A DNA stretch of 64,000 bases from an uncultured delta proteobacterium (GTDB lineage Bacteria > Desulfobacterota > Binatia > Binatales > Binataceae), in assembly GCA_963836955.1 (NCBI GenBank), contig CAWILO010000004.1, forward strand, positions 152,916 to 216,915. Direction: 5' to 3'. Shown piece by piece: positions 31,648 to 59,676 of this stretch. Numbering within the stretch: position 1 is the stretch's first letter; each line of letters begins with the position of its first letter. A program made the position numbers and the translations under genes. Below the pieces are notes generated by a model. It was given only the letters and a program-made list of their open reading frames with translations, had not been told where the DNA came from and searched no databases.

Positions 31648-31670
31648 TTTTACCGTCGCGTAGTCTGAGT

Positions 31671-31747
31671 TGGTCGGGGTGGCCGGATTTGAACCGGCGA
31701 CCACTCGCACCCCAAGCGAGTGCGCTACCAGTCTGCGCCACACCCCG
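31671..31747 (-). tRNA. tRNA-Pro (anticodon GGG)
   Basis: Minus-strand sequence CGGGGTGTGGCGCAGACTGGTAGCGCACTCGCTTGGGGTGCGAGTGGTCGCCGGTTCAAATCCGGCCACCCCGACCA. It has a 7-bp acceptor stem and an anticodon loop UUGGGGU (G37 typical of Pro). GTTCAAATCC T-loop and encoded CCA. Confidence 0.85.
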
Positions 31748-31832
31748 ACGCGACGAACATTATATATTCGCTTCCGGCAAGACCACACCTGCCGCCCAAG
31801 CGGCGACTAAATGCTCGCCCGGCCTTTCCTGA

Positions 31833-35917: not shown

Positions 35918-36233
35918 TCCATTCCTATTCCTCGCCCATTAGTTCACGGGATCGGTTAGGTGAGGGTTCTGCGGCATCCACCGCGATTTTCTCCTTTACG
36001 CGCTCGCCGACTTTCTCTATAAGTTGATTCGTCCGTCGAGGAAGACACTTCCCGGCGAGACGGTGTTGAGAGGACATTTGGTTTCGTTGTCTGCTCGCGC
36101 CTGGATCCGACAAGGACCGGGACTCCGAGTGATTCGAGCGCTCGTTCATTCGAGGATGCTCTGATGCGGGGTTGCCGGTAAGCGGCAGCCCCGATTTTTT
36201 TGGTGCGAGCAACTGAAGCGAGTGAGTGAGAAA

Positions 36234-37073
36234 ATGACGCAAGAAAAAGTTCGCGTGCCCGATCTCGCGCGCATGAAGGCCGCGCGGCAGCCAATCACGA
36301 TGCTGACCGCGTACGATTTCCCCTTCGCGAGGATCTTCGACATCTCCGGCGTCGACGTGCTCCTGGTCGGCGATAGTCTCGCGATGGCGGTGCGCGGCGA
36401 GGACAACACCCTAGCCGTCACAATCGACGAGGTCATCTACCACACCCGGATGGTCGCGCGGGCGCGCCGCCGTGCGATCCTCGTCGCCGATATGCCGTTC
36501 CTGTCGTACCAGGTGAGTCCCGAAGACGCGCTGCGCAACGCCGGCCGTCTCGTCAAGGAAGGCGGCGCCGAAGCGGTGAAGCTCGAAGGCGGCGTCGCGA
36601 TCGCAGACACAGTCGCGAGAATCTCGGCTGTCGATATTCCCGTGATGGGACACATCGGCTTGACGCCACAGTCGATTCATCGAATGGGCGGGCATCGCGT
36701 GCAAGGCCGAAAATCCGGCCGCGCCGCCGGATGCCGTGAGCGCCTGCTCGAAGATGCTGTCGCACTCGAAGCCGCAGGCGCATTCGCAATCGTCGTCGAG
36801 GGCGTGCCGCCGTCGTTGGCGCACGAGATAACTTCGCGTGTCGCGATTCCGACTATCGGCATCGGCGCCGGCCCCGGATGCGACGGGCAAGTGCTCGTGA
36901 TGCACGACATGCTCGGCCTCAACGAGTCGTTCGCGCCGCGCTTCGCGAAGCCGTTCGCGCATCTGTGGAGCGAGGCCGCGGCGGCAGCCACAGCCTACGT
37001 GCGCGAAGTGAAAGAGTGCGCGTTTCCCGCGCCGGAACACTGTTACGCCGAATCCGGGAGGGCCTCGCGATGA
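36234..37073 (+). CDS. panB: 3-methyl-2-oxobutanoate hydroxymethyltransferase
   Basis: ITMLTAYDF and LLVGDSLAM motifs. ATG at 36234 is preceded by the GAGTGAG SD. The GTG at 36222 is a less likely start. Confidence 0.9.
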   Translation: MTQEKVRVPDLARMKAARQPITMLTAYDFPFARIFDISGVDVLLVGDSLAMAVRGEDNTLAVTIDEVIYHTRMVARARRRAILVADMPFLSYQVSPEDALRNAGRLVKEGGAEAVKLEGGVAIADTVARISAVDIPVMGHIGLTPQSIHRMGGHRVQGRKSGRAAGCRERLLEDAVALEAAGAFAIVVEGVPPSLAHEITSRVAIPTIGIGAGPGCDGQVLVMHDMLGLNESFAPRFAKPFAHLWSEAAAAATAYVREVKECAFPAPEHCYAESGRASR

Positions 37074-37915
37074 TCGTAATTACCTCGCCGGACGAGATGA
37101 CTCGCTACTCCGAGTGCGCTCGCCTGAGCCGCGAGCGAATCGCGCTGGTGCCCACGATGGGCTATCTGCACGACGGACATCTGACGCTGATGCGCGAAGG
37201 CCGGCGTCAATCGTCAACCTTAGTAGCGTCCATCTTCGTCAATCCCACCCAGTTCGGCCCCGGCGAGGACTTCGCGAGCTATCCGCGCAACTTCGAGCGC
37301 GACTGCGCGATGCTCGAGACGGTGTCGGTGGACGTGGTCTTCGCGCCCGAGCCGACTGCGATGTACTCGCCCGACGCGCAGAGCTGGGTCGACGCCGGCG
37401 ACATCACGAGCGGACTCTGCGGAGCGCATCGCCCGGGACATTTCCGCGGCGTCACGACGGTCGTCGCCAAGCTGTTCAATATCGTCAAACCGCATCTGGC
37501 GGTTTTCGGCGAGAAGGATTTTCAGCAGTTGCGCGCGATCCAGAAGATGGTCCGTGATCTGAACTTCGACGTTGAAATTATGCCGGTGCCGATCGTGCGC
37601 GAGAAAGACGGTCTCGCGATGAGTTCGCGCAACGCTTACCTGTCGCCAACGGAGCGTGAAGACGCACTCGCGCTGAGCCTCGCAATCCGCGCGGCCCGCG
37701 AGAAACATCGCGCGGACCCATGCTGCGCCGAAGAAATAGTGTTCGCCGCAAGCCGAGTGCTCAAGCGGATGAAAGGCATCGAGATCGAATACGTAGAAGC
37801 GGTGGACGCCGAAACGCTAGCGCGTCATCCGTCGCTCGACCGCCCAATCCTGATCGCAATCGCAGCCCGCGTCGGCAAGACGCGACTTATCGATAATGTA
37901 GTGCTCAACCCGTAG
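37070..37915 (+). CDS. panC: pantoate--beta-alanine ligase
   Basis: VPTMGYLHDGHLTLM HIGH-type motif. Start overlaps the panB stop (ATGA). Confidence 0.9.
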   Translation: MIVITSPDEMTRYSECARLSRERIALVPTMGYLHDGHLTLMREGRRQSSTLVASIFVNPTQFGPGEDFASYPRNFERDCAMLETVSVDVVFAPEPTAMYSPDAQSWVDAGDITSGLCGAHRPGHFRGVTTVVAKLFNIVKPHLAVFGEKDFQQLRAIQKMVRDLNFDVEIMPVPIVREKDGLAMSSRNAYLSPTEREDALALSLAIRAAREKHRADPCCAEEIVFAASRVLKRMKGIEIEYVEAVDAETLARHPSLDRPILIAIAARVGKTRLIDNVVLNP

Positions 37916-37935
37916 CCGAGACGTCCGATCCTAGC

Positions 37936-38112
37936 CTCTCCCTGATAGAGAGTTTTGCGTAACATCCGCGCAGGCGTTCGGAGCAGAGGCAGAATCCTAA
38001 ATCTCGCGCAGAATAGCGCGCTGTACAAGGACCCTCACCTTCATCCTCGCCCTAACAGGGCGAGGAGACAGACAGCCGAGCCGATTACGCAAAACGCTCC
38101 TGATAGAGAGAA
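37936..38112 (-). repeat. copy B of ~175-bp structured intergenic repeat (inverted relative to copy A)
   Basis: Ends carry TGATAGAGAG direct flanks and the 10-bp inverted repeat TTTTGCGTAA / TTACGCAAAA. Internal perfect hairpin CTCGCCC-TAACA-GGGCGAG. About 85% identical to copy A over ~150 bp. Confidence 0.6.
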
Positions 38113-38124
38113 GCCAGGAAAGAG

Positions 38125-38439
38125 CTAGGTCATCAGCAGAATCAAGAGGCCGCCGGTCACTATGAAGCCGCCGCCGAGCAGGATTCTGTCGTCGGGGACC
38201 TGCTTGAAGATAATCAGCGAAATCGTCTGCGACACTACGAAGAAGATCGCGATGTAGATTCCCATCAGGCGATTGAAATCGACGCCGCTTTGGTTGACCA
38301 GGATTCCGTAAGCGAACAGCGCGAACGCACCGGCTGCGAGCGAGTATCCGTAGCTGTGAAGTCCTATCCGGACGAGCGCATCGCCGCCGACCTCGAGCAG
38401 CGCGGCCAGCACCAGCACGGCGAGCGTCTTTAAGATCAA
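38125..38439 (-). CDS. small 4-TM membrane protein (SMR/EamA-like, ArnE/ArnF-like)
   Basis: 104 aa with four hydrophobic helices. Size and topology resemble the small multidrug resistance fold. Confidence 0.45.
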   Translation of the reverse strand: MILKTLAVLVLAALLEVGGDALVRIGLHSYGYSLAAGAFALFAYGILVNQSGVDFNRLMGIYIAIFFVVSQTISLIIFKQVPDDRILLGGGFIVTGGLLILLMT

Positions 38440-38458
38440 CGGCGGAGTCGCTTACGAC

Positions 38459-39790
38459 CTAATAGTAATCGACCGGATCGATCTGCCGCTTTGCGCCCCA
38501 GTAGAAGAGCATGTTCTCGGTCAGCCCCTGCCAGGTGAACTTACCCGGCGGCATCAGCAGCCGCTTGAACATCGACTTCAGCGAGTAGAACTCCTTCGTG
38601 CAACGCCACACGCCTTCCTCGACTTCCTGCGGCGACATATTCTTGGGCACGAACATGCAGCGGAAGTTGTTGGTATAGAGGTCGGCGTCGGGGATTATCA
38701 CGCGGCCCTCGTTCTCGAGTTGCGTGCGCATCGGCGTGCCGACGCGCGGCGTCACCGTGTTGAAGAAAGCCTCAGGCGCCTTGACCTCGTGCAGGAACTT
38801 CAGGGTGTCGTCGAAAATGCCCGGATGATCCTCTTCCAGCCCGAACAGGAAGTTGAGCGAGTAGTAAATCCCATATTTTTCGAGCTTCTTGAGCAGCTTC
38901 TTGTACTGCCCCGCGTGATTCTGAATCTTGTTCATCGACAGAAGGCTTTCCTGGCTGATCGATTCCACTCCGATATTGACGTGGAAAATTCCCGCCTTCG
39001 CCGCCAGCTCCAGCAAATCGTCGTCGTGATTCGAGTTGATCGTCCAGAGGCACGAGAAGCGGATGTTGAGCGGCTCCAGCGCCTTGAACAGCTCACGCGC
39101 AAACTTGTGCTTGCCGGTGATCTGATCGTCGATGAATTGAAAGCGCCTGAAGCCGGTAATCTTGACGACCTGTTTTATCTCCTCGACGATGTCCTCGATC
39201 GGGCGCGTCCGATACGCGCCGTCATAGAAGACCGGGATCTCGCAGAAGGAGCATCGATAAGGGCATCCGCGGCTCGCCTGCACCGGCACCGCCTTGAACA
39301 GGTAGCGATTGAGCTTGAGCAGCTCGTGGCGAGGGCGCGGCAGGTTCTTCAGGTCGTGCATCTTGTCGGCTTTGTAGATTTGCTTGAGCTTGCCGTCGCG
39401 CCAGTCCTGCAGCAGTTCGGGCCACACCAGGTCAGCCTCGCCCTGCACGACCGCATCGCAATGATGGAGAGCTTCTTCGGTCTGCAGCGTCGCATGGAAT
39501 CCGCCGAACACAACCGGGATACCGCGCTTGCGGAACTCGTCGCCGAGCTGGTACGCGCGCAGCGACGCGCCAATGGTGGTCGTCATGCCGACCAGGTCCC
39601 ATCCGCCGTCGAAATTGATTTCCTCGAGGCGCTCGTCACATAGCGTTACGTCGTAATCGTCCGGCGTCAGTCCTGCCATCAATGGAATCATCAGACCCAT
39701 GATCAGCCGCCAGCGCGTTTTATGCGGTGTGCCGTCGAGATGGACGGTGGTGGGTTGCACCAACAGGATACGTGGCTTCTTACCGTTCAT
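38459..39790 (-). CDS. B12-binding domain radical SAM protein (class B)
   Basis: N-terminal cobalamin-binding Rossmann-like region (ILLVQP...). Radical SAM cluster motif SRGCPYRCSFCE. 443 aa. Confidence 0.85.
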   Translation of the reverse strand: MNGKKPRILLVQPTTVHLDGTPHKTRWRLIMGLMIPLMAGLTPDDYDVTLCDERLEEINFDGGWDLVGMTTTIGASLRAYQLGDEFRKRGIPVVFGGFHATLQTEEALHHCDAVVQGEADLVWPELLQDWRDGKLKQIYKADKMHDLKNLPRPRHELLKLNRYLFKAVPVQASRGCPYRCSFCEIPVFYDGAYRTRPIEDIVEEIKQVVKITGFRRFQFIDDQITGKHKFARELFKALEPLNIRFSCLWTINSNHDDDLLELAAKAGIFHVNIGVESISQESLLSMNKIQNHAGQYKKLLKKLEKYGIYYSLNFLFGLEEDHPGIFDDTLKFLHEVKAPEAFFNTVTPRVGTPMRTQLENEGRVIIPDADLYTNNFRCMFVPKNMSPQEVEEGVWRCTKEFYSLKSMFKRLLMPPGKFTWQGLTENMLFYWGAKRQIDPVDYY

Positions 39791-39822
39791 ACTTCCTCCG
39801 CCTGCAGGCCTCGGTTCCCTTC

Positions 39823-41040
39823 CTACAGGCTTTCAGGTTCCATGGACGATTGGGTCCGGCCGGTAATCCAGATCAGGAGCAGCGCAAACACATAAGTACC
39901 GAACGCCGTCCCCCAAGCGAAGTACTCTAGCCGATTAATTAGAGCTAATACCACGAGTAAGTATGCGAAATCGCGGCCACTCCATCGATCGACCTTGTCC
40001 AGCCATGCGGCAGCCTGCGCGCCTTTCATTTTGAACGCCCGCCATGTGGCGTATGCACACATTGTGAATCCGCCGAGCAGGACAGGAATCAGGTACAGGT
40101 AGGCGCGGCTGTGATCGACCCGGTAGCATCCAACCAGCAGGCCGACGAACACTGCGGCGTGGACGATATTGTCAGTGAGCACGTCGAGCGCCCCACCGAA
40201 ATCGCTCTCGATCATTTTGAGCCGCGCGAGTTCGCCGTCGACGCCGTCGATCGTGATCGAGGTCAAAAAGAAAATCGCCGCGAACAGGCGCATCCAGTAG
40301 TTAGGCACAGCGAACATCCAGGCGCACGCCAGCCCGAATATCGTGTTGGCGACCGTGACCATGTTGGGTGTGACCCCGGTATGTGTGGCGAGCCAGTAGC
40401 TGATTCGCCACGAAATCCGCCGGTCGACCCATCGCGCCATCGGCGCATCTTTGTGCGCTGATTCCTCGCGAATTGTCTTCGCCAGCCGCAGTTCCGCTTC
40501 CTCGCGATCCTCGGGCCGTCCGTTCAGCGCGAAGGGCAGCAGGCTGGCGGAGGGCGCCGCAACGGTGGTCGAAATTCCCCCACGCTTGAGAATCTCGCCG
40601 ACGGGTCCGGTCGCGATTTCACCGCCACGGTCGCGATCGGTGCTGACGACCCGGTGTACTGACTGCGGGTTAGACGCGTGCGCGTCGAGGACCCGCGCCA
40701 GCTGCGATTTCGCGAATACCAGGTTCCCGGAGAAGGACACGCAAGGCGACGACGGGTCGATGCCTATTTCCTGCGCATTCCGATGATTCAGAATCTCACT
40801 GAACGATTCGACCATCGAAACCGTGTCGTAATTTTTGAACCGGCCCATCGCGCGAGCGACGTCCGGATATTGCTCGCGCGGCGCAGCCACGACAAACCGT
40901 TTGATCCCGGCGCGCTCGCAATTAATCATCAGCCGCTCTAACAGCGGGCGGCCGAAGACCGCATTATCCGCGCGGTCAGGTGCAGCGATTAGAGCAGTTT
41001 CAATCACCAACGTCTTCGTTAAACCTAGTCTTCCCCCCAA
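39823..41040 (-). CDS. fusion protein: N-terminal nucleotidyltransferase-like domain + C-terminal CDP-alcohol phosphatidyltransferase
   Basis: C-terminal half has a perfect CDP-OH transferase signature DGELAR-x8-G-x3-D-x3-D (DGELARLKMIESDFGGALDVLTD) in a multi-TM region. The N-terminal ~200 aa is a soluble NTP-transferase-like fold lacking a clean GxGxR motif. Confidence 0.75.
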   Translation of the reverse strand: MGGRLGLTKTLVIETALIAAPDRADNAVFGRPLLERLMINCERAGIKRFVVAAPREQYPDVARAMGRFKNYDTVSMVESFSEILNHRNAQEIGIDPSSPCVSFSGNLVFAKSQLARVLDAHASNPQSVHRVVSTDRDRGGEIATGPVGEILKRGGISTTVAAPSASLLPFALNGRPEDREEAELRLAKTIREESAHKDAPMARWVDRRISWRISYWLATHTGVTPNMVTVANTIFGLACAWMFAVPNYWMRLFAAIFFLTSITIDGVDGELARLKMIESDFGGALDVLTDNIVHAAVFVGLLVGCYRVDHSRAYLYLIPVLLGGFTMCAYATWRAFKMKGAQAAAWLDKVDRWSGRDFAYLLVVLALINRLEYFAWGTAFGTYVFALLLIWITGRTQSSMEPESL

Positions 41041-41285
41041 GCTCTCGTAGTCGGCGCCACGGTAACACAGCGGTAACGCCGATGGAAGTAGCCCTGCTAC
41101 TAGCTTCCAGCTCTAATTATGAGTTCGGCTTTCATCTGATGCCAGCCCTTGTCGAGTGGATCGTAAGGCGGAAAATCGGGTTCTCCAAGGTACATTGCCA
41201 AACAGCTCGCGCTATTTCCAATCGCCCACCTTAGTTGCAGCCGAAACTAGAGGATACCTATCGCGGCTGGTAAACTGACCATTTC

Positions 41286-42026
41286 ATGGGCACCATTACC
41301 GCCTTGCTATTCGATTTCGGCGGCACGCTCGACGGGCCGGCGCATTGGCTCGACCGTTTCCTCTTGAGCTACCGCGCTGCCGGGGTCGAAATATCACGCG
41401 CCGAACTCGACCCGGCGTTCGATCATGCGACCCGTATCGGCTACGGCGCGACGCGGGTCGTGGCGCGGTTCGGGATGACGGACCTGGTGCGATTCCTCGT
41501 CGGCCATCAATTCGAATATCTCCAAAAAAGCGGGCCGGAGGCGCTCCGCAAGGTACTCGAGGATTCCGGCGCCGCCGGACGCCATCGCTTCGTCGAAGAC
41601 GTGACAAAATCGTTCGTCCGTGAGACATCGGCTGGCCTGGCGCATAGCCGCGACGTCATCGGCTCTCTCAAGAGCCGCTTCAAGCTGGGAATCGTTTCGA
41701 ACTTTTATGGAAATCTGGACCGGATCCTCGAAGAGGCGAGGCTGGATCGATTCTTCGCGGCAGTTGCTGATTCATCGCGCGTCGGAATCTTCAAACCCGA
41801 GCTGGGCATCTTCGCAGCCGCTTTAAGAAAACTTAATTGTGCACCCGAATCGGCTGCGATGATTGGAGACTCTCTCGCGAAGGATTGCGTGCCCGCACAT
41901 GAGCTCGGGATGCGGACCGTTTGGCTGCGCACCGAGTCGCAACGCGGCGACGATGCTTCCGGGGCGCACGCCGCCGCCGATATCACGATCCGAACGATCG
42001 ACGAAGTTGCGCAAATTCAATGGTGA
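41286..42026 (+). CDS. HAD-superfamily hydrolase (subfamily IA-like phosphatase)
   Basis: LLFDFGGTL motif I at the N-terminus and downstream HAD motifs (GIVSN, GD). 246 aa. Confidence 0.8.
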   Translation: MGTITALLFDFGGTLDGPAHWLDRFLLSYRAAGVEISRAELDPAFDHATRIGYGATRVVARFGMTDLVRFLVGHQFEYLQKSGPEALRKVLEDSGAAGRHRFVEDVTKSFVRETSAGLAHSRDVIGSLKSRFKLGIVSNFYGNLDRILEEARLDRFFAAVADSSRVGIFKPELGIFAAALRKLNCAPESAAMIGDSLAKDCVPAHELGMRTVWLRTESQRGDDASGAHAAADITIRTIDEVAQIQW

Positions 42027-42751
42027 CGAGATTGCAAGGAGCAATTATTGCCGCGGGCCGTGGCGACCGGCTGCGCGTCTCGACGCGCGACGACATTCCC
42101 AAGCCGCTCGTCATGCTCGGCGGTGAGGCGATGCTCTCGCGGCAGGCGCGCGCACTGATCGACGCGGGCGCGTCGTCAGTTGTCGCGGTGATCAACTCCG
42201 AGACGGCGCGCGTCGCGAGTGAGAACCAAATTGCGCTCGAGGTTCCGTCGTCGGTCCGGCTCGTGGTTCGCGACACCGCCAACTCGATGGAAACGATGCT
42301 GGCGCTTGGTGACGAGTTAGCATCAGGATGGTTTATAGCGTCGACGGTCGACGCTGTAATTCCACAGGCGGAATTGGCGCGTTTTGTTAATGAGTCGCGA
42401 CGGAAAATCGAGGATTGTGGCGACAAAAAACTAGTCGGTGTGCTGGCTGTCACAAAATGGCGCGGTGAAGCCAAGCCGCTTTTCGCCGATGTAACAGAGA
42501 ACGGGTTGATCCTGCGCCTCGGCAACCGTCAGACTTCTATGGTGACGGCAGGACTCTATTTCCTGTCGACCCGAATTTTCGACTTCGCCGCCGACGCGCG
42601 CCGCGCGGGACTCGATGCGCTCCGACGCTTTCTTGGACTGATTATCGAACGCGGGATGCGGCTGGATGCGATCGAGGTCGAAGGATCAATTGATGTGGAT
42701 GAGGCGGAGGACCTCGACGCCGCGCGCCTCGCAACACGGAAGATGCCATGA
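42019..42751 (+). CDS. sugar/alcohol-phosphate nucleotidyltransferase (NTP_transferase fold)
   Basis: MVTRLQGAIIAAGRGDRLR...PKPL matches the G-x-G-x-R-L nucleotide-binding signature. Start overlaps the HAD stop by 8 nt. Confidence 0.7.
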
Positions 42752-43569
42752 GCTATAGAGCTTTGGGAATTTATCGGGAACCCGAGTTTTCACCGGGCAA
42801 GGTCGAGGCTGACGCCGCGATTCTCGACGCCACCTTGTCTGAACTCAAGCGCGAGGGTGTCGAGATCCAGACGATCGATGCGGTCAGTTTCGCAGTGGCT
42901 CTGCCCGTTCGCGCCGATCTCGTGCTGCCGATGTGCCAAGGGCCGCGCGCGCTCAAGCGGCTGGCTGAAATCGAGCAGGCGGGGGCTATAGCGATGAACT
43001 CCGCGCTCTCGATTCGCAATTGCTACCGCGATTTGCTCGCGCCCGGTCTCGAGCGCGCCGGAGTGCCCACACCGCCGGGCGTGCTGGTCGCGACAGACGT
43101 GCCGCTCGATACGCGCAAGCTTGCCGCGCTGGATTTATCGGCGGGTGTGTTCGTCAAGCGCGGCGACTTGCACGCACTCGCGCCTGAAGACGTTCAGCGG
43201 GCGGCCGATCGTGCGGAGATCGAGTCGATCCTCGCCGATTTCGCGCGCCGCGGAATCCGCTTCGCCTACATGCAGCAGGAAGTCGTTGGACGGGTCGTGA
43301 AATTTTACGGCGTCAGCGGCGGTACGCATTTCAGCGTGCATCCGGAGGACGAGGAAGTCGCCGAAGCCGCTGTGCGCGCGCTGTCGGAGGCGGCAACCGC
43401 TGCGGCCGGTGCGCTCGGCCTCGAGGCGTGGGGCGGAGACGCGGTCTTGAGTGGCGATCGTTTTGCGATTATCGATTTTAACGACTGGCCCAGTTACAGC
43501 CGGGTGCGCGGACCTGCCGCGCGTGCGATCGCACGCCGCGCGATGAGTCTGCTTGGCCGCCCGCGCTAG
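42748..43569 (+). CDS. ATP-grasp domain protein
   Basis: C-terminal GGDAVLSGDRFAIIDFNDWP resembles the ATP-grasp Mg/ATP site (E/D-x-N). 273 aa. Translationally coupled to neighbours. Confidence 0.55.
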   Translation: MSYRALGIYREPEFSPGKVEADAAILDATLSELKREGVEIQTIDAVSFAVALPVRADLVLPMCQGPRALKRLAEIEQAGAIAMNSALSIRNCYRDLLAPGLERAGVPTPPGVLVATDVPLDTRKLAALDLSAGVFVKRGDLHALAPEDVQRAADRAEIESILADFARRGIRFAYMQQEVVGRVVKFYGVSGGTHFSVHPEDEEVAEAAVRALSEAATAAAGALGLEAWGGDAVLSGDRFAIIDFNDWPSYSRVRGPAARAIARRAMSLLGRPR

Positions 43570-44977
43570 AATCGCGCCGGAAATTCAAATAAGGATTCGG
43601 ACCGCCAATCAATTGAAGACAACTACCAACGGAAAACTTCCGGCAATCAGGACCGCCGTTCCTGGACCCAAGTCGAAGGAGATCTTCGACCTCGAACAAA
43701 AATATATCGCCCCGGGCCGTCAGCGAATCTCGCTGCTCGCCGGCCTCGCGTTCGATCACGGCGAAGGCGCGACTCTTACCGACGCCGACGGCAACACTTA
43801 CGTAGATTTTTTCGCGGGCGTCGCAGTCGCAAGCCTCGGTCATGCGCATCCTGGCATGGCGCAGGCGCTGTCGAACCAGGCGTCGCGGCTGATGGTCGGC
43901 ACCTTCGCCACCAAAGAGCGCGCGGCCGCGTTCAAGGCGCTGGCTGAAGTCGCGCCCGCCGGCCTGACTCGGGCACATCTATATAGCGGCGGTGCGGAGG
44001 CAGTCGAAGCTGCCTTGCGGCTCGCGCGCTCTGCTACTGGAAAGCATGAGGCCGTGAGCTTCTGGGGCGGCTTCCACGGCAAGACCGGTGGCGTTCTAGG
44101 ACTGATCGGCGACGAATCGAAGCAAGGCTACGGACCGTTGCAGGGCGGACAGTACACAGTTCCATACGCGGACTGCTACCGATGCCCGTTCAAGTTGAAG
44201 TATCCCGACTGCGGGCTGTACTGCGTCGATTTCGCGCGCCAGCAAATCAAGATGAGCTCCAGCGGCGCGCTCGCTGCGATTGTCGCCGAGCCGATGCAAG
44301 GCACGGCCGGCAACGTGATCCCGCCCGACGACTGGCTGCCCGCGGTTAAATCCGTCGCCAAGGATTTCGGCGCGATGCTGATAGCCGACGAAATGATCAC
44401 CGGCTTCGGACGGACCGGAAAATGGTGGGGCGTCGAGCATAGCGGCGTCCGTCCCGATATCGTCACCGTCGGCAAGGGGATGGGCTCCGGATTTCCTGTT
44501 TCGGGGGTGCTGCTAAGCGACGAACTGGGCAAAGCGGAGCCGTTCTCGAAGCCGAGTGCGTCGTCGTCGAGCTACGGCGGAAATCCGCTGGCGGCGGTGG
44601 CGGTGGCGGAAACGATCGGCGCGATTCAGCGACAGCACCTGGTCGAAAACTCGCGCAAGGTCGGCGCAAGGATGCTGTCGAAGCTGACTCAGCTCAAAGA
44701 AAAATACGAGTTTATCGGCGACGTCCGCGGCAAAGGGTTGCTGATTGGCGTCGAGCTCGTACGCGATCTCGAAACCAAGGAACTGCTCGGCAAGAAAGTC
44801 ACCGAGCTGATCTTCGCCGAATGCCTCAAGCGCGGACTCGTCATCATGGGCTACTTCCCCAAGATTCGAATCAACCCCGCGCTGGTTATCACCGAAGCGC
44901 AGGCCGAGGCCGGCGTCGAGATAATGGACGAAGTGTTCGCGCATGTCCGCGACCACGTTGACTGGCAGCACGCGTAA
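43553..44977 (+). CDS. class III pyridoxal-phosphate-dependent aminotransferase
   Basis: Fold I AT-III blocks (YSGGAEAVEAALRLAR, ADEMITGFGRTGKWWG, VTVGKGMGSGFP with PLP-Lys). Start uncertain: TTG at 43553 or later. Confidence 0.85.
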   Translation: MAARARIAPEIQIRIRTANQLKTTTNGKLPAIRTAVPGPKSKEIFDLEQKYIAPGRQRISLLAGLAFDHGEGATLTDADGNTYVDFFAGVAVASLGHAHPGMAQALSNQASRLMVGTFATKERAAAFKALAEVAPAGLTRAHLYSGGAEAVEAALRLARSATGKHEAVSFWGGFHGKTGGVLGLIGDESKQGYGPLQGGQYTVPYADCYRCPFKLKYPDCGLYCVDFARQQIKMSSSGALAAIVAEPMQGTAGNVIPPDDWLPAVKSVAKDFGAMLIADEMITGFGRTGKWWGVEHSGVRPDIVTVGKGMGSGFPVSGVLLSDELGKAEPFSKPSASSSSYGGNPLAAVAVAETIGAIQRQHLVENSRKVGARMLSKLTQLKEKYEFIGDVRGKGLLIGVELVRDLETKELLGKKVTELIFAECLKRGLVIMGYFPKIRINPALVITEAQAEAGVEIMDEVFAHVRDHVDWQHA

Positions 44978-44992
44978 GCGAAATCTTTTTCG

Positions 44993-45469
44993 ATGGCCAA
45001 CCCGAACGGCAACGCGGCGCTGTTCTTCGATTTGGGCGGTACCCTCGTCAAACTCAACGACGAGCGCGAGATTCCGCTCGACGCAAACGGCAACATTGTA
45101 GTCGAACTGCTTCCGGGCGTGACGGAAAAGCTTCGCCCCCTGCATAACCATCTGATGTTCGTCGTGACCAACCAGGCGGGGATCACGCGCGGACGGCTGA
45201 CGGCGGAAAAAGTCGAGGCGGCTCTTCGGCAGCTCGACCATCAGCTCGGCGACATCCTCACCGCGTGGCAAGTCTGCCCGCATACCGACGACGACAAATG
45301 CGAATGCCGCAAACCCAAGGGCGGAATGATCGCAGAGCTAGCCGACCAGTACGGAGTGGACCTGGCATCGTCAACGATGGTCGGCGATCAGGAAGTCGAC
45401 AGGCTCGCAGGCGAAGCTGCAGGCGTCGCGAAGTTCGTCGCAGCCGAGGACTTCTTCGGCTGGAAGTAG
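44993..45469 (+). CDS. HAD-IIIA phosphatase, GmhB / histidinol-phosphatase-like
   Basis: FFDLGGTL motif I. Zinc-finger-like CPHTDDDKCECRKPK insert characteristic of GmhB-type D,D-heptose bisphosphate phosphatases. Confidence 0.75.
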   Translation: MANPNGNAALFFDLGGTLVKLNDEREIPLDANGNIVVELLPGVTEKLRPLHNHLMFVVTNQAGITRGRLTAEKVEAALRQLDHQLGDILTAWQVCPHTDDDKCECRKPKGGMIAELADQYGVDLASSTMVGDQEVDRLAGEAAGVAKFVAAEDFFGWK

Positions 45470-45480
45470 GGGACGGGTAG

Positions 45481-45690
45481 ATCACACTTAATGTGAAACC
45501 CGCGGTGGGTTTCACACTTCCTTGGGCAGGGGTGACCCCTGCACCCAATGACAAAAGAAAAGATGCGGGACTTCGTCCCTGTTAGAACTTTTTTGGGGCG
45601 GAGGCTTGGGTGAGGATCCGAAACTTACCTCGCCCGTTATTTTCACGAGAGAGGCGGCCGACCGCATCGCGGTCGGTAGGTGAGGGTTCC
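45481..45690 (+). other. cluster of strong hairpins / structured RNA candidate between gmhB-like and LLM genes
   Basis: Perfect 10-bp stem TGTGAAACCC-GCGG-GGGTTTCACA. Then GCAGGGG-TGA-CCCCTGC and GGGAC-TTC-GTCCC followed by a T6 tract. Then GGGTGAGG..CCTCGCCC..GGTGAGGG, which offers alternative pairings. Confidence 0.4.
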
Positions 45691-45806
45691 GAGGCTCCAG
45701 ATGCAAGTGTGCAACGTGCGTCGTCTTTTCGTTTCGTCCTTCCTTTGTCTGTCGTCTTTTTTTTGTGTCATTCTGAGCGCAGCGAATGAGCGAGGAGAAA
45801 ACAAAA

Positions 45807-46658
45807 ATGAAAATCGGATTGCTTACCCCCTTCACTGGCAAAAATGCGCATCCCGGAGAATTTGCTCGAGTCGCCGAGTCTCTCGGCTTCGAATCCATTT
45901 GGGTGCCCGAGCATCCCGCGATGCCCGCCAATCCCAAGCAGCAGTTTCCCACCGGCGGTCCGATTCCGCCCGCGTACTTCACGATGGCCGATCAGATGAT
46001 CGCGCTCGCGATGGCCGCCGCCACTACCAAGAATCTCAAACTCGCCACCGGCATCTGCCTCGTCCCGGAGCATGAGCCGCTCACTCTCGCCAAACAGTTC
46101 GCGACTCTGGACGCATACTCGGGCGGCCGTGTGCTGTTCGGGATTGGCGCGGGATGGTTGCGCGAGGAGAGCGATCTGTTCGGCGTCGATTTTCCCCATC
46201 GATGGACCGAGACTGCCGAGATAGTCTCCGCGATGCGCAAGCTGTGGACCGAGGACCAGGCATCGTTCGAGGGCAAGTACGTAAAGTTCCCGCCAGTGAA
46301 ATCGCTGCCGAAACCCGCGCAGAAATCGGGACCGCCCGTGCTGATCGGCAGCCTCGACAAGAACGCGCTCAAGCGCGTGGCGAAGTGGGCCGACGGATGG
46401 TGTCCTATCGCACTCAACGCCTCGCAGTTGAAGACGCGGGTCGATGAGCTCAAGCGCGAGTGCCAGGCGGTCGGCAGGAACTTCTCGGAATTGGACATCA
46501 CGATCATGGGCGGAATCCGCGGCGATCGCGCAACTGTGCAGGCCGGGCTCAAGGAATTTGCGGAAGCAGGAGCGGGTCGATTCGTCGCAGGGCTGGGAGA
46601 TCTAACGTTCGAGAGCTCAGAGGGAACGCTGAAGAAGATCGCCGCGCTGTACGTTTAG
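45807..46658 (+). CDS. LLM-class (luciferase-like) flavin/F420-dependent oxidoreductase
   Basis: GAGGAG SD 9 nt upstream of ATG (MKIGLLTPF...). Conserved TIM-barrel LLM blocks (ESIWVPEH, LGIGAGW). Confidence 0.8.
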   Translation: MKIGLLTPFTGKNAHPGEFARVAESLGFESIWVPEHPAMPANPKQQFPTGGPIPPAYFTMADQMIALAMAAATTKNLKLATGICLVPEHEPLTLAKQFATLDAYSGGRVLFGIGAGWLREESDLFGVDFPHRWTETAEIVSAMRKLWTEDQASFEGKYVKFPPVKSLPKPAQKSGPPVLIGSLDKNALKRVAKWADGWCPIALNASQLKTRVDELKRECQAVGRNFSELDITIMGGIRGDRATVQAGLKEFAEAGAGRFVAGLGDLTFESSEGTLKKIAALYV

Positions 46659-46665
46659 GGGAAAT

Positions 46666-46728
46666 CACCTCTCCCCTCGGGAGAGGTCGCGCCTCCGGCG
46701 CGGCCCCTCCCGATTGGAGAGGTGAAGA
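46666..46728. terminator. bidirectional hairpin cluster between convergent genes
   Basis: ACCTCTCC-CCTCG-GGAGAGGT, then CGCGCC-TCC-GGCGCG, with an outer CACCTCTCC...GGAGAGGTG repeat. GC-rich with no clear U-tract. Confidence 0.35.
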
Positions 46729-46733
46729 GTTTC

Positions 46734-46973
46734 TCAAATTTCGTCGCGCAGGATTCTTGTCGCTATTACCAGTGCGGTCGCCCCTGCCGTGGACATCAGA
46801 ATCGCGCCGATGAAGTTATGCGCTTGTACACCTAACACCGCGAAGATCATTCCTCCGATCACTCCGCCGAGCAGGCCGAGCACTATGTCCGCCATCATGC
46901 CGTAGCCGTTGCCGTTGAGGATTTTGCCTGCCAGCCATCCCGAGATAAGTCCGATTAGAATCCATGCGAACAT
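46734..46973 (-). CDS. GlsB/YeaQ/YmgE family stress response membrane protein
   Basis: Start at MFAWILIGLISGWLAGKI. Glycine-zipper-rich 80-aa membrane protein. The ORF track's N-terminal extension is rejected. Confidence 0.7.
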   Translation of the reverse strand: MFAWILIGLISGWLAGKILNGNGYGMMADIVLGLLGGVIGGMIFAVLGVQAHNFIGAILMSTAGATALVIATRILRDEI

Positions 46974-47198
46974 GATTTCGCCTGCCTCCCTGATGTTTCG
47001 GCCGCTAAGCCGGAAAATCCGGCGTCGCTGCCTTAATTGGGCAGAGAGCAAGAGCGTTGCCATCGGGGATTAGAGCGAATCTGCTGATCAATTCCTTCGA
47101 AACGCGGCGTAGTCGATGCCGTGTTTCGACTGCACCGCCGCGTTGCGGCTGCGGCGGGTTGCTCGCGCTGTTGGTTTAGCTGAAACTCATCGGCGCGG

Positions 47199-48230
47199 AT
47201 GGCTGGTCGAACGAAACTACGAGGCACTATTTCCGGGTTTGGCGAGGTTGCTGCCCGGGCCCATCTGCCCGGATGGCGCACGCGCGACGGCGTTGCCATC
47301 GGCGCTATCCACGATCCTGTTTCTGAGCGGCGTCACGAAGCTATTCGGTTGATCAAGAATGTTCGCGTCTATGACGACCTCGAGTTGATGCTTGACGGTG
47401 AGGCTCCCGATTTTGTGGATGTAGCGAGTCCGCCGGGGTTCCATCATGAGGCCGCACGCCTGGCGCTTGAAGCGGGCGCGCACGTCTTGGTCGAGAAGCC
47501 GCTCGCGCTTTCGCTTGGCGAGTTCGATAGGCTTGCAGGCTTGGCCGCCGAGAAACGACGGGTCTTGATGTGCGTGCACAATTGGAAGTACGCACCGGCG
47601 TACGCGGCTACGCGCAAGGCGATCGAGGCCGGCAGGCTCGGCCCAATTCGCTTCATGTCGATCGACCGGTTGCGGACAGAGCCTGCGGGCGCTGGAGGAA
47701 GCGGTGGCAAGTGGCGCGCATCAGCGGCGTCGGGTGGCGGGATTCTGATCGATCACGGATGGCACGTTTTCTACCTGATGAACTGGCTGCTTGGAGGTGA
47801 TTCGCCGGTGTCGATATCGGCACGGCTCGAGTCGCCGGCCGGCGTCGACGTCGACGACGTGGCCGAGGTGCGAATCAGGTTCGCGAACGGATCGCTCTCT
47901 CGGGCACATCTTTCGTGGCGGGCGCCGGTGCGCAGAACTTCGGCGCTCATCTATGGAGAGCGGGCGTGTATCGAAATTGAAGGTGATCGGATGACGATTA
48001 CGGATCGCGCCGGGAAGGTTGAGGACCTGTCGCTCGCGGATGCAGCCGACGATTCATACCATTCGACATGGTTCGCCGGCGTTGCGGAAGAGTTCGAGCG
48101 AGCGGTCACCGAAGGAACCGATTCGCCCGTTGCAAGGCGCAATCTGGCCGAGGCGCGGGTCGCGCTCATGCTAATCGACGCAGCACGGAAATCGTCTATC
48201 AACAACGGCGTAGAGATATATCTCCCGTAA
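47199..48230 (+). CDS. Gfo/Idh/MocA family oxidoreductase
   Basis: N-terminal Rossmann fold (GFGEVA), EKPLA motif and C-terminal alpha/beta domain. Confidence 0.8.
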   Translation: MAGRTKLRGTISGFGEVAARAHLPGWRTRDGVAIGAIHDPVSERRHEAIRLIKNVRVYDDLELMLDGEAPDFVDVASPPGFHHEAARLALEAGAHVLVEKPLALSLGEFDRLAGLAAEKRRVLMCVHNWKYAPAYAATRKAIEAGRLGPIRFMSIDRLRTEPAGAGGSGGKWRASAASGGGILIDHGWHVFYLMNWLLGGDSPVSISARLESPAGVDVDDVAEVRIRFANGSLSRAHLSWRAPVRRTSALIYGERACIEIEGDRMTITDRAGKVEDLSLADAADDSYHSTWFAGVAEEFERAVTEGTDSPVARRNLAEARVALMLIDAARKSSINNGVEIYLP

Positions 48231-48439
48231 AATCAAATAGTTAGGCTCAAATTCAGACCTTTGCCGGTTTTAGATCGCGCTGACCGCCTGACCGCTCGGA
48301 CGGTCGCTCTTGACTTTCGGGATTGTGACGGTAAAGTTTCCATTGACCGAAAGGTTAGCCGCAATATTGAGACAAGAAGATGATGGCGGCTCGGATTATC
48401 GAACGATAGCTTACGGTCGCTACGATATCGGTTTTTCTC

Positions 48440-49150
48440 GTGGCTACGACTGACGACAGGAGAAGGGCGGGGAATCAGCCCCCGACTATGGGCGCATCGC
48501 AGATCAAAGTGGGGACATCGGAGCCGGGCAGCCAGTCGCAGGATTCGCGAGACGAGATCCTGAAGGCCGCCATGCAGCTATTTGCCAATCGCGGGTTTCA
48601 TGAGACTTCGATGTCGGAAGTGGCGCGCGAGGCGCGAGTCAGCAAGGCGCTGATTTTCTGGCATTTCAAGACCAAGGAAGACCTGTTCGTCGCCGTGCTG
48701 AACCGGCTGCTGGAGCCGTACTTTATCGATTTTACCGAAGAAGCGGCGGCGATGGACGAGCGCGCGCAGATCGAGAAGCTGGTCGAGTCTTACCTGTCGT
48801 TCGTGCGCGACAACGCCAGCTCGGTGCGATTTTTCCTCGCGCAGATGCTGCACGACCAGAAGCTGTCCGAGAGTCTCAACGAGCAGGTGCTCAGGCTGTA
48901 CAGCGGATATCGCGCGATGCTGGTCGAGCTGATCAAGAGCGCGCAGGAGAAGGGAATCTGTGCGCGGCGGTCGGCACCGGAATCGGCGGCGGCGTTTCTG
49001 CTGTCGGCGCTTAATGGATTGCTGATCGAGTATTTGTTCATGGGTGCCAACGCGATCGACCCGGAAGGGGCGGTAGCAATGGTAGGGGAATGGCTGTTCG
49101 GCCCGTCGGTCTCATCTTCATCGTCGGAAGGCGGCGCGCCAGCCGCCTGA
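48440..49150 (+). CDS. TetR/AcrR family transcriptional regulator
   Basis: HTH block FANRGFHETSMSEVAREARVSKALIFWHFKTKEDL. Directly upstream of hpnH. Confidence 0.8.
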   Translation: MATTDDRRRAGNQPPTMGASQIKVGTSEPGSQSQDSRDEILKAAMQLFANRGFHETSMSEVAREARVSKALIFWHFKTKEDLFVAVLNRLLEPYFIDFTEEAAAMDERAQIEKLVESYLSFVRDNASSVRFFLAQMLHDQKLSESLNEQVLRLYSGYRAMLVELIKSAQEKGICARRSAPESAAAFLLSALNGLLIEYLFMGANAIDPEGAVAMVGEWLFGPSVSSSSSEGGAPAA

Positions 49151-49184
49151 TTTTCTTCAACATATCCAGGAGAACGCACCAGTT

Positions 49185-52244: not shown

Positions 52245-52309
52245 TCAGGTTGCGGCGAAGTTGTGGCGGTTCCCGCGGGATGCGGGCTGAGTCGAGACAG
52301 GGGTGAAAT

Positions 52310-54268: not shown

Positions 54269-54278
54269 GCAGGTCGCT

Positions 54279-55448: not shown

Positions 55449-55452
55449 GACG

Positions 55453-57283: not shown

Positions 57284-57284
57284 A

Positions 57285-58649: not shown

Positions 58650-58664
58650 CTACTTGCTAATCGA

Positions 58665-59669: not shown

Positions 59670-59676
59670 GCCCGCG

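Follow-up and report, generated by a model that had tools for sequence, protein, structure and literature searches.

Background

An alternative cluster for inositol lipids has been proposed by Heaver et al. (2022, PMC9246714) in Phocaeicola (Bacteroides) vulgatus and Prevotella, comprising an NTP transferase (BVU_RS13095), a CDP-alcohol phosphatidyltransferase (BVU_RS13105) and a HAD protein (BVU_RS13115), which are proposed to act through CDP-inositol, however, the function of this cluster is not yet confirmed. In hyperthermophiles, di-myo-inositol-phosphate type solutes are made by IPCT/DIPPS (Archaeoglobus fulgidus AF0263, PDB 4MND; NCBIfam NF041135), in which a cytoplasmic NTase-fold domain is joined to a six-helix CDP-alcohol phosphotransferase. 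Hopanoid side chains, on the other hand, are built by the products of hpnH, hpnG, hpnI, hpnJ, hpnK and hpnO, accompanied by the functionally uncharacterised hpnL and hpnM. The nucleotide-heptose pathway (HddA kinase, GmhB phosphatase, HddC nucleotidyltransferase) and the amination and methylation of aminoglycoside rings (GenD2 dehydrogenase, GenS2 aminotransferase and GenD1 cobalamin radical SAM; PMC4340712) provide further precedents for the enzyme combinations considered here.

We analysed a window of 64,000 nucleotides from the soil bacterium Candidatus Binatus, in which a first-pass annotation had pointed out an eight-gene CDP-alcohol-based cassette close to a large hopanoid locus. The cassette is found to be related to the proposed inositol-lipid cluster of gut Bacteroides, but with an added pair of amination genes, and it lies beside hopanoid genes in several phyla.

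Gene content of the cassette

All eight open reading frames were confirmed at their annotated positions with the domains assigned to them, and the observation therefore holds, although with some corrections. The two blocks had been described as converging, however, the minus-strand block lies on the left and the plus-strand block on the right, and they diverge from a shared spacer (41041-41285, or 41011-41285 if the start suggested by homologues is used for the first minus-strand gene). This spacer is presumed to be the promoter region, but only one weak sigma-70-like match was found in it, on the minus strand, which is no more than expected by chance.

In the minus block, gene A (38125-38439) encodes a small, hydrophobic four-helix membrane protein with a weak YnfA/UPF0060 match (22.6 bits, below the Pfam cut-off), and tblastn hits beside the cassette were obtained only in the closest Binatus relatives (entries L021-L031 and L047). 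Gene B (38459-39790) is a cobalamin-type (class B-like) radical SAM enzyme, with a Radical_SAM domain and a B12-binding domain scoring just below threshold (31.1 bits, cut-off 32.1). It is not HpnJ, HpnR or BchE, since all named families score far below their cut-offs, and equivalence to HpnJ is not supported (79 bits against a cut-off of 577.6), with true HpnJ and HpnI lying on another contig. The nearest solved structures are 9CCB, AprD4 and CysS. B is 88-98 % identical across Binataceae, where its neighbours are only 50-90 % identical. A 39 % relative lies inside the cassette of G083 (G numbers denote individual genomes), and a radical SAM-transferase fusion, P0203, lies 3 kb from a gene for myo-inositol-phosphate synthase (MIPS).

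Gene C (39823-41040 as the longest reading frame, with homologues suggesting a start at 41007-41010) is a membrane CDP-alcohol phosphotransferase (CDP-OH_P_transf), in which the motif D265-x2-D-G-x2-A-R-x8-G-x3-D-x3-D is invariant across 17 family members. It scores best against IPCT/DIPPS (74 bits), followed by archaetidylinositol-phosphate synthase (53.7) and PIP synthase (49.6), all above PgsA/PssA at about 29, and housekeeping PgsA and PssA exist elsewhere in the genome. The N-terminal half has an NTase fold, and the top whole-chain fold match is IPCT-DIPPS 4MND, followed by KdsB/IspD/TarI. This half, however, lacks the GxGxR...K signature and has no sequence match to any solved NTase, and an active NTase domain in the fusion is therefore not supported.

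In the plus block, gene D (41286-42026) is a HAD-IA phosphatase conserved in both the aminotransferase version and the Bacteroidota version of the cluster. Gene E (42020-42751, with an alternative start at 41921) is predicted to be an active sugar/cyclitol-phosphate nucleotidylyltransferase, as G-x-G-x-R-L, K28 and D111 are invariant, corresponding to the R16/K26/D112 residues cited for Thermotoga IMPCT (PMC12275187). Gene F (42748-43569) has no hit in Pfam or NCBIfam, and its assignment as a three-domain ATP-grasp enzyme rests only on a predicted fold (pLDDT 94; RimK/LysX/Ddl, Z 20-23). Six of its eight best sequence-profile hits in the PDB are inositol-phosphate kinases (ITPK4 with an E-value of 2e-6), whereas by structure its best matches are RimK/LysX ligases and its language-model neighbours mix RimK-like and ITPK-like families, so that it may be either an ITPK-like cyclitol(-phosphate) kinase or a RimK/LysX-like ligase. 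F is the signature gene of the cluster in all lineages. Gene G (43553-44977) is a class-III PLP aminotransferase (Aminotran_3, E-value 7e-94), and gene H (44993-45469) is a HAD-IIIA phosphatase, histidinol-phosphatase/GmhB-like, which is an addition found in Binataceae only. The overlapping starts had been correctly noted, with 4-7 nt between D and E, 4 nt between E and F, and 17 nt between F and G if the TTG at 43553 is used.

The unit is larger than first described. Gene J (47199-48230, plus strand), a Gfo/Idh/MocA NAD-dependent dehydrogenase, belongs to it. It directly follows G in non-Binataceae lineages, coming after G in 16 of 19 non-Binataceae loci, and it is the presumed partner of G. 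Between H and J lies gene I (45786-46658, plus strand), an F420-type luciferase-like oxidoreductase of the TIGR03619 family, found at this position in Binataceae only and whose membership in the pathway is uncertain. A TetR-family regulator, K (48440-49150, plus strand), conserved in Binataceae, separates the cassette from hpnH (49185-50189, plus strand), the adenosyl-hopene transferase gene which begins the hopanoid locus. The rest of this locus (50239-63172, plus strand) consists of FPP synthase, Zn-ADH, squalene-hopene cyclase (SHC; 52310-54268), dxr, hpnC, hpnD, hpnE, hpnA, two reading frames without assignment, an SDR and hpnK (62312-63172).

Conservation and the link to inositol

Conservation of the neighbourhood, which had been named beforehand as a point on which the proposal could fail, was found to hold, and far exceeds chance. 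The order D-E-F-G-J, usually with C, recurs in Binataceae, Syntrophobacteraceae, Elusimicrobiota, Verrucomicrobiota and Gemmatimonadales, and D-E-F-G(-J) is kept in 47 of 80 loci from several phyla and in dozens of genomes. F and G have identical distributions (17 of 17 genomes) and are always adjacent, and orthologues of G (52-75 % identity) occur only next to F. They were found in none of the 26 other SHC-positive genomes sampled, and equivalence of G to a general HpnO is therefore not supported.

The core E-F-C-D, together with an LPG_synthase_TM gene, recurs next to MIPS in Phocaeicola vulgatus, Sphingobacterium, Muribaculaceae and Dysgonomonas, and this is the cluster proposed by Heaver et al. 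In the aminotransferase version, MIPS lies inside or beside the cassette in at least five lineages (G074, G036, G121, G088 and G122) and about 8 kb away in a Verrucomicrobiota MAG. All 12 high-quality carriers in a 201-genome sample of the phylum have MIPS, however, the association is not statistically distinctive, as MIPS is common in the phylum (121 of 201; p 0.07). The Candidatus Binatus genome has one copy, on another contig.

The available evidence points to a lipid rather than a solute. Homologues of C are fused to the flippase-type LPG_synthase_TM domain, an HpnL-like gene follows the cassette in 11 of 19 non-Binataceae loci, and an MlaC/HpnM-like gene is present in Desulfoferrobacter, although no LPG_synthase_TM gene lies within 10 kb of the cassette in Binataceae.

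Association with hopanoid genes

The proximity to hopanoid genes is conserved across lineages and not incidental. The aminotransferase version abuts hpnH, hpnJ, hpnK or hpnA in at least five families, and hpnH directly abuts it in four families other than that of the window. The arrangements include hpnA-hpnH-D-E-F-G-J in G107 and G073, an adjacent hpnH in G028, hpnH-MIPS-D-E-F-G-J in G121, hpnJ-D-E-F-G-J ... C ... hpnI in Desulfoferrobacter suflitae, and D-E-F-G-J-C-HpnL-like-hpnK-hpnJ in bacterium HR30, while C-like genes lie next to SHC in G073 and G050.

In the 201-genome sample, SHC is present in 14 of 17 carriers against 26 of 184 non-carriers, and by family in 9 of 9 against 11 of 75, although related genomes are not independent and the p-values overstate the case. 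Outside the phylum, the carriers among Elusimicrobiota (2 of 2), Verrucomicrobiota (3 of 3, one from an unpublished genome) and HR30 have SHC, and SHC occurs in only 10 of 201 genomes of the phylum of G205, a Verrucomicrobiota MAG by its record title. Four cassette-bearing MAGs outside the phylum (G202, G204, G207 and G210), for which there is no completeness figure, showed no SHC.

Discussion

The interpretation offered in the first-pass annotation is supported in part. A CDP-alcohol-based polar head-group cassette with IPCT/DIPPS-like architecture is supported, as is an aminated head group, since the aminotransferase is paired with a dehydrogenase that had been left outside the cassette, whereas the compatible-solute option is disfavoured. 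With moderate confidence, only somewhat above even, we consider the cassette to be a hopanoid-associated, aminating variant of the CDP-inositol type cluster, which would place a CDP-activated, inositol-derived aminocyclitol phosphate head group on a membrane lipid, possibly a bacteriohopanepolyol. What the analysis establishes is the gene content, folds, motifs, synteny and co-occurrence with SHC and MIPS, while every chemical step and the product itself are inferred.

In this view, MIPS would make inositol phosphate, which F, the HAD phosphatases D and H, and E would convert into a CDP-activated cyclitol, most economically by a kinase, then a bisphosphate phosphatase, then the NTase, thereby moving the phosphate to the ring position that will be linked. 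J would oxidise one ring hydroxyl and G would convert the ketone to an amine, giving an inosamine-type aminocyclitol, although class III is not the usual inosose aminotransferase family, which is DegT-type. C, with its own NTase-like domain catalytically dead, would form the phosphodiester to a lipid partner, and B would further tailor the ring or the lipid by methylation or rearrangement. The partner could be diacylglycerol or a bacteriohopanepolyol, with the genomic association favouring a link with hopanoids. No such lipid is described in the papers searched, and the Bacteroidetes cluster that anchors the analogy is itself functionally unconfirmed.

Amongst the alternatives, the one that survives best, though still unlikely, is an aminated phosphatidylinositol-like glycerophospholipid with a diacylglycerol or CDP-DAG partner, lying near hopanoid genes only because membrane-lipid genes are co-regulated or co-inherited. 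The Bacteroidetes homologue is proposed to make PI-type lipids, C is nearest to PIP/AIP/DIPP synthases, and the flippase-type partners are of the family that acts on phospholipids. However, the cassette is adjacent specifically to side-chain genes (hpnH, hpnJ, hpnK, hpnA, hpnI) in different arrangements in at least five families, and is almost restricted to SHC-positive genomes in three phyla, which is hard to explain by chance or co-regulation alone, although co-function in one membrane would also fit.

Somewhat more doubtful is direct tailoring of the hopanoid side chain without any inositol, where J and G would oxidise and aminate a bacteriohopanepolyol or ribosylhopane in an HpnO-like step, F would acylate the new amine as an amide ligase, as in N-acyl aminotriols, and E and C would handle a nucleotide-activated hopanoid intermediate, for example phosphoribohopane from HpnG activated to an NDP-ribosylhopane and then coupled to an alcohol. 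The tight adjacency to hpnH, hpnA, hpnJ and hpnK, the co-occurrence with SHC, the structural closeness of F to RimK/LysX ligases, the membership of E in the sugar-1-phosphate NTase family (best solved match the heptose-1-P NTase 5XHW) and the fact that HpnO is also a class-III aminotransferase (PMC12324291) are consistent with this. Nevertheless D, E, F and C form the same cluster next to MIPS in Bacteroidota, which make no hopanoids (B. thetaiotaomicron, included as a control, gave no SHC signal), MIPS is embedded in the aminotransferase version in several lineages, G orthologues are absent from the 26 other SHC-positive genomes sampled, and C groups with inositol-phosphate-using transferases.

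A soluble compatible solute of the di-myo-inositol-phosphate type, formed from a CDP-cyclitol and a cyclitol phosphate followed by a phosphatase, is very unlikely. The architecture and best HMM and fold matches of C, a HAD phosphatase as required for DIPP dephosphorylation, and the MIPS linkage would agree with it, however, the NTase half of C is degenerate, flippase-type fusions and neighbours and an MlaC-like lipid carrier accompany the cassette, it is linked to hopanoids, and the carriers are, by their record titles, soil and sediment organisms, not hyperthermophiles. That the genes are unrelated neighbours, as the two separate transcription units and the lack of an evident role for I and K might suggest, is contradicted by the conserved order, the identical distributions of F and G, and the overlapping stop and start codons.

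Comparison with known systems

The alternative inositol lipid cluster shares with the window a homologous NTase (E, 25-30 % identity), ATP-grasp (F, 31-37 %), CDP-alcohol transferase and HAD (D, 26-32 %), with the same local order E-F, an accompanying LPG_synthase_TM gene and a link to MIPS. The version in the window adds G and J, its transferase has an extra degenerate NTase-fold domain which is missing from the 316-residue P. vulgatus protein, its MIPS is elsewhere in the genome, and it occurs in hopanoid producers beside hpn genes. The ATP-grasp gene is not discussed in the description of the Bacteroidetes cluster that we consulted. IPCT/DIPPS shares the two-domain architecture and the DGxxARx8Gx3Dx3D motif, however, the score of 74 bits is far below the family cut-off of 580, the absence of GxGxR/K in the N-terminal domain implies that NTase activity must come from the separate gene E, and the context points to a lipid product.

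With the canonical hopanoid side-chain pathway, the cassette shares physical linkage to hpnH, hpnJ, hpnK and hpnA, accompanying HpnL-like and HpnM-like genes, and a class-III aminotransferase and a B12-type radical SAM, as hpnO and hpnJ are. True HpnI and HpnJ are present elsewhere in carriers, and hence the cassette does not replace them, G is restricted to cassette genomes, and no NTase, ATP-grasp or CDP-alcohol transferase is part of the described pathway.

Similarly, the combination of a kinase-type enzyme, HAD phosphatases including the GmhB-like H, and an NTase whose best solved relative is a heptose-1-phosphate NTase recalls the nucleotide-heptose pathway and suggests, by analogy with established pathway knowledge, that a phosphate is moved through a bisphosphate before nucleotide activation, although the kinase candidate here is an ATP-grasp and not a GHMP kinase, and the substrate is presumed to be a cyclitol. 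In aminoglycoside biosynthesis, a dehydrogenase and a PLP aminotransferase convert a ring hydroxyl to an amine and a cobalamin radical SAM then modifies the ring (PMC4340712). The best solved relative of J is 6NOR, deposited as a putative NAD dependent dehydrogenase and possibly GenD2. Sequence identity to these enzymes is low and G is of class III, and the context here is a membrane lipid, not an antibiotic.

Gene content and predicted domains of the cassette

The assembly that carries the window is 5.6 Mb long and 96% complete, and the closest proteins and loci carry the names Candidatus Binatus and Binataceae. All the open reading frames listed in the first-pass annotation exist, and its observation of a gene cassette is confirmed, although with corrections. 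On the minus strand lie A (38125-38439), a small hydrophobic protein with a sub-threshold YnfA/UPF0060 match, B (38459-39790), a radical SAM protein with a B12-binding-type N-terminus, and C (39823-41040, with the likely start at 41007-41010), in which Pfam sees only a CDP-alcohol phosphotransferase domain at residues 224-374. On the plus strand lie D (41286-42026), a HAD-IA protein, E (42020-42751), an NTP transferase, F (42748-43569), which matches no family, G (43553-44977), a class-III aminotransferase (Aminotran_3, E 7e-94), and H (44993-45469), a HAD-IIIA protein that is histidinol-phosphatase/GmhB-like. The two blocks had been described as converging, however, they are divergent and share the spacer at 41041-41285. 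The D/E, E/F and F/G pairs overlap by 4-17 nt. Promoter and terminator scans of 37800-49300 found no more sites than shuffled sequence gives.

The nucleotidyltransferase E keeps G13-x-G15-x-R17, K28 and D111 in all 15 aligned homologues and is therefore, on its sequence, the working nucleotidyltransferase of the cassette. A complex prediction of C with E, which asked whether the NTase-like domain of C docks the active enzyme, returned a score of 0.00 and is not evidence either way. The radical SAM B is 88-98% identical across Binataceae (loci L021-L047), while the adjacent transferase C and the D-H genes fall to 50-60% in the same genomes, indicating an unusually strong constraint on one member of the cluster. 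Immediately upstream of the cassette lie panB and panC (36222-37915). panC also neighbours C-like genes and MIPS (myo-inositol-phosphate synthase) in genome G107 (locus L020), which is probably coincidental synteny. Further away, a tRNA-Pro (GGG) gene on the minus strand (31671-31747) lies inside the span of a 395-aa ORF (30601-31788), and this ORF call is therefore probably too long at its start.

Conservation of the gene order

The unit is larger than first reported and is widely conserved. Searches with tblastn of the window's proteins against relatives showed that the order D-E-F-G is kept in the same family, whereas in more distant members of the phylum the order is C-D-E-F-G-J on one strand, where J is the Gfo/Idh/MocA dehydrogenase found at 47199-48230 in the window. 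A scan of 185,579 species genomes with the F family found more than 560 relatives. Amongst the best 80 loci, 47 have G directly after F, of which 28 are Binataceae and 19 are Syntrophobacteraceae, Elusimicrobiota, Verrucomicrobiota, Gemmatimonadales and others. Among these 19, J follows in 16, C is present in 11 and an LPG_synthase_TM gene is present in 11. The other 33 loci lack G, are mostly Bacteroidota, and 21 of them carry MIPS.

In a 201-genome sample of the window's phylum, F occurs in 17 genomes, and orthologues of G (52-75% identity) occur in exactly those 17 and always beside F, the next-best aminotransferases being only 37-39% identical. The cassette is single-copy in the window's genome. 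One genome (G083, locus L113, G083:C8:104000-123999) carries two partial copies of the cassette side by side, HpnL-like-D-E-F and C-F-G-J-C, with a B-like radical SAM (39% identity) and a second HpnL-like gene between them, and a third copy of F on another contig.

Association with inositol and membrane-lipid genes

In carriers of the aminotransferase version, MIPS lies between F and E in genome G074, next to F in G036, between hpnH and D in G121, just after the HpnL-like gene in G088 and G122, and about 8 kb away in a Verrucomicrobiota MAG. In addition, a protein in which a radical SAM is fused to the transferase (P0203) was traced to a contig where it lies 3 kb from MIPS. The window's genome has one MIPS, which is on contig C2, whereas the cassette is on C4. 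MIPS is common in the phylum (121 of 201), and its co-occurrence alone is therefore not distinctive (14 of 17 carriers against 107 of 184 non-carriers, p 0.07). The evidence here is the physical linkage.

Several features point to a lipid rather than a soluble product. Several homologues of C are natural fusions to the LPG_synthase_TM (MprF flippase-type) domain (relatives P0126, P0131, P0137, P0180 and P0185, and locus L105; about 680-790 aa). One of the fusions sits next to a sulfotransferase rather than the D-G genes, and P0131 was found to lie away from the D-G genes. A separate gene of the same family, with HpnL as its best match below cut-off, follows the cassette in many lineages, and in Desulfoferrobacter an outer-membrane factor and an MlaC/HpnM-like lipid carrier follow as well. 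The window's genome has ordinary PgsA and PssA, a Pcs-like enzyme and a short AIPS/PIPS-like enzyme elsewhere, and C is therefore an extra transferase. A second protein with the same architecture as C is also present in this genome (locus L125, G000:C10:13500-16600). It has 424 aa with the transferase domain at 226-327 and a long N-terminal extension, and is adjacent to an HpnL-like flippase-family gene (139.6 bits against TIGR03476).

Association with hopanoid biosynthesis genes

In the window the cassette is followed by a TetR gene, hpnH, FPP synthase, squalene-hopene cyclase (SHC), dxr, hpnC, hpnD, hpnE, hpnA and hpnK. A Zn-dependent alcohol dehydrogenase (51177-52244) lies between FPP synthase and SHC, with threonine-dehydrogenase/scyllo-inosose-dehydrogenase-like matches and a sub-threshold 'HpnZ_proposed' hit, and two ORFs between hpnA and hpnK (59677-60576 and 61308-62315) have no NCBIfam match at E 1e-15. 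The linkage of the cassette to hopanoid genes is not peculiar to Binataceae. In G107 and G073, hpnA-hpnH (522 bits, cut-off 225) directly precede D-E-F-G-J, and G073 also has hpnK and hpnJ. In G028 hpnH abuts D, and in G121 the order is hpnH-MIPS-D-E-F-G-J. In Desulfoferrobacter suflitae DRH4 and three other Syntrophobacteraceae a true hpnJ directly precedes D (739 bits in DRH4, cut-off 577.6), and in DRH4, where the order is hpnJ-D-E-F-G-J-HpnL-like-...-C-...-hpnI, hpnI lies about 6 kb beyond C. Bacterium HR30 carries D-E-F-G-J-C-HpnL-like-hpnK-hpnJ. In two unrelated families of the phylum (G073, locus L019 at G073:C4:1-8026, and G050, contig C396) a C-like CDP-alcohol phosphotransferase lies directly upstream of, and on the same strand as, the SHC gene itself. 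In D. suflitae a BREX-3 PglZ phosphatase gene (855 bits, L053:3216-5315) lies about 1.8 kb upstream of hpnJ and the cassette, and a defence island borders the lipid cluster.

In the phylum sample, where SHC occurs in 40 of the 201 genomes overall, it is present in 14 of 17 cassette carriers against 26 of 184 non-carriers (p 8e-9), and by family in 9 of 9 against 11 of 75 (p 5e-7). Relatives are not independent, however, and these p-values overstate the case. The three carriers without SHC are 62-85% complete, and all 12 high-quality carriers have SHC. Outside the phylum, SHC is present in both Elusimicrobiota carriers, in HR30 and in all three Verrucomicrobiota carriers. One of the latter (G209) is an unpublished genome, and the claim stands without it. 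Four other MAGs with the cassette, for which no completeness figure is given, showed no SHC. In the phylum of G205, a MAG labelled as Verrucomicrobiota, the ATP-grasp gene F is too rare (1 of 201 genomes) to replicate the association, and only the SHC background could be used, SHC occurring in only 10 of 201 genomes there.

Proposed pathway and its lipid partner

The first-pass interpretation, a CDP-alcohol-based cassette for a tailored membrane-lipid head group or compatible solute, is partly supported and considerably sharpened by these results. While the gene content, predicted folds, motifs, gene order and co-occurrence follow from the analysis itself, every chemical step proposed here, the production of an inositol lipid and the identity of the product are inferred. 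In the most likely mechanism, F, D/H and E would form a kinase-phosphatase-nucleotidyltransferase trio comparable to HddA/GmhB/HddC of the nucleotide-heptose pathway, given that H is GmhB-like and that the best solved relative of E is a heptose-1-phosphate NTase. Applied to inositol, the trio would move the phosphate, through a bisphosphate, from the position made by MIPS to the position that will be linked, which would explain why a phosphatase and an ATP-grasp sit in a cluster that already has MIPS. J and G would then aminate one ring position. The precedent is the GenD2/GenS2 dehydrogenase-aminotransferase pair of gentamicin biosynthesis, where a cobalamin radical SAM (GenD1) subsequently methylates the ring (PMC4340712), and B may play a comparable tailoring role. 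Finally, C would form the phosphodiester with the lipid partner.

The partner may be diacylglycerol or a bacteriohopanepolyol, between which sequence cannot decide. Although the hopanoid linkage makes the second a serious possibility, we consider it less likely than not on present evidence. In this view, the cassette would attach an inositol-derived aminocyclitol phosphate to a bacteriohopanepolyol, in that either a CDP-aminocyclitol would be coupled to the terminal hydroxyl of bacteriohopanetetrol or a nucleotide-activated ribosylhopane would be coupled to cyclitol phosphate. The product would be a phosphorylated, nitrogen-bearing composite hopanoid, the hopanoid counterpart of phosphatidylinositol or inositol phosphoceramide. 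No such class was found in the papers searched, and it would be missed by the usual acetylation-based analyses. Literature searches likewise found nothing relevant for inosamine phospholipids, for inositol together with bacteriohopanepolyols, or for Desulfoferrobacter lipids, and no paper in the library searched combines hopanoids with CDP-alcohol transferases in this sense. Nor did they confirm that PDB 6NOR, the best solved relative of J, is GenD2. Aminopentanetetrol phospholipids, which occur in Aquificales and Thermodesulfobacteria, were also considered as a candidate product. The possibility that the cassette replaces HpnI in making the cyclitol ether was rejected, because HpnI and HpnJ are present elsewhere in this genome and in four other carriers, that is, in all five carriers tested.

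Hopanoids are major bacterial membrane lipids and key geological biomarkers, and their polar side-chain chemistry is thought to be covered by a short list of hpn genes. A 2025 survey of genes near shc lists hpnL and hpnM as of unknown function, and a term search of it found no mention of nucleotidyltransferases or phosphotransferases (PMC12324291). A six- to eight-gene cassette that tracks SHC in at least three phyla, and is wedged between hpnH, hpnJ, hpnK and hpnI, contains enzyme types that are not known to have been assigned to hopanoid biosynthesis, namely a nucleotidyltransferase, a CDP-alcohol phosphotransferase, a predicted ATP-grasp and an oxidoreductase/aminotransferase pair. This points to an unrecognised polar lipid, perhaps a phospho-aminocyclitol hopanoid, in widespread soil and sediment bacteria, and D. 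suflitae DRH4, as a cultured carrier, makes the prediction directly testable.

Comparison with known systems

B is not HpnJ, HpnR or BchE, as all scores are far below cut-off. It scores 79.4 bits against HpnJ (TIGR03471, cut-off 577.6), while the true HpnJ of this genome is at C25:25900-27309 with 724.9 bits. G is a class-III aminotransferase, as expected of HpnO, however, its orthologues occur only in the 17 F-positive genomes and in none of the 26 other SHC-positive genomes sampled, and a role as the general HpnO is not supported by this distribution. The cassette-linked flippase-type genes score 112-140 bits against HpnL (TIGR03476, cut-off 195.65) and the MlaC-like gene 67.8 bits against HpnM (TIGR03481, cut-off 160.1). 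HpnL and HpnM are their best-matching families, but they are not equivalogs.

The gene F was identified as an ATP-grasp from its predicted fold. The model is confident (pLDDT 94) and shows a complete three-domain ATP-grasp, with Z 20-23 to RimK, LysX, ArgX, Ddl and carbamoyl-phosphate synthetase over about 250 of 273 residues, and K137, K185, D231, D243 and N245, consistent with the conserved Lys and acidic/Asn metal ligands of the superfamily, are invariant. Evidence on kinase or ligase chemistry is divided. A profile of the family finds inositol-phosphate kinases in the PDB by sequence (ITPK4 at E 2e-6 and five ITPK1 chains at E 0.006-0.02), whereas structural ranking prefers RimK/LysX ligases and language-model neighbours mix RimK-like and ITPK-like clusters. 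Against the ITPK1 family in Pfam (PF05770, Ins134_P3_kin) F scores 12.1 bits, below the gathering threshold of 23 bits, and 8 of 26 family members give weak hits, none better than E 0.028.

The transferase C was compared with the bifunctional IPCT/DIPPS enzyme by HMM and fold rankings, rather than by a tree with reference DIPPS, PIPS, AIPS and PgsA sequences. An AlphaFold model from 17 family members (pLDDT 87) has six or more helices, and its best whole-chain match is the Archaeoglobus IPCT-DIPPS structure 4MND, followed by AF2299 and PIP synthases, while its N-terminal 190 residues match cytidylyltransferases such as KdsB, IspD and TarI. The phosphotransferase signature D-G-x2-A-R-x8-G-x3-D-x3-D is retained, with D265, D268, G269, A272, R273, G282, D286 and D290 invariant. 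However, C scores only 74 bits against NF041135 (curated cut-off 580 bits), with only the transferase half (residues 195-384) matching. In the NTase-like half the motif region reads ALIAAP-DRADNAVFGRP, no G-x-G-x-R or K is conserved among the 17 members, and there is no sequence match to any solved NTase. The architecture is therefore IPCT/DIPPS-like, but the NTase half is almost certainly inactive.

The closest gene cluster is the "putative alternative inositol lipid cluster" of Heaver et al. (PMC9246714). They proposed a route from MIPS to CDP-inositol by the NTP transferase and then transfer by the CDP-alcohol phosphatidyltransferase, with a HAD hydrolase of unclear role, and stressed that the route is unconfirmed. 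The Bacteroidota version runs MIPS, E, F, CDP-alcohol transferase, LPG_synthase_TM and D, as seen in Phocaeicola vulgatus ATCC 8482 (locus L077) and in Sphingobacterium loci such as that of Sphingobacterium multivorum. In the window's genome MIPS is not in the direct vicinity, although it is adjacent in other carriers of the aminotransferase version. The ATP-grasp gene is not mentioned in the passages of that study consulted, yet it is the most conserved member of the cluster, and a kinase-phosphatase-NTase scheme would explain why a phosphatase sits in it. The present cassette bears on this second, unconfirmed route to bacterial inositol lipids in gut Bacteroidota, and is best read as a new, aminating and hopanoid-associated variant of the proposed CDP-inositol lipid pathway.
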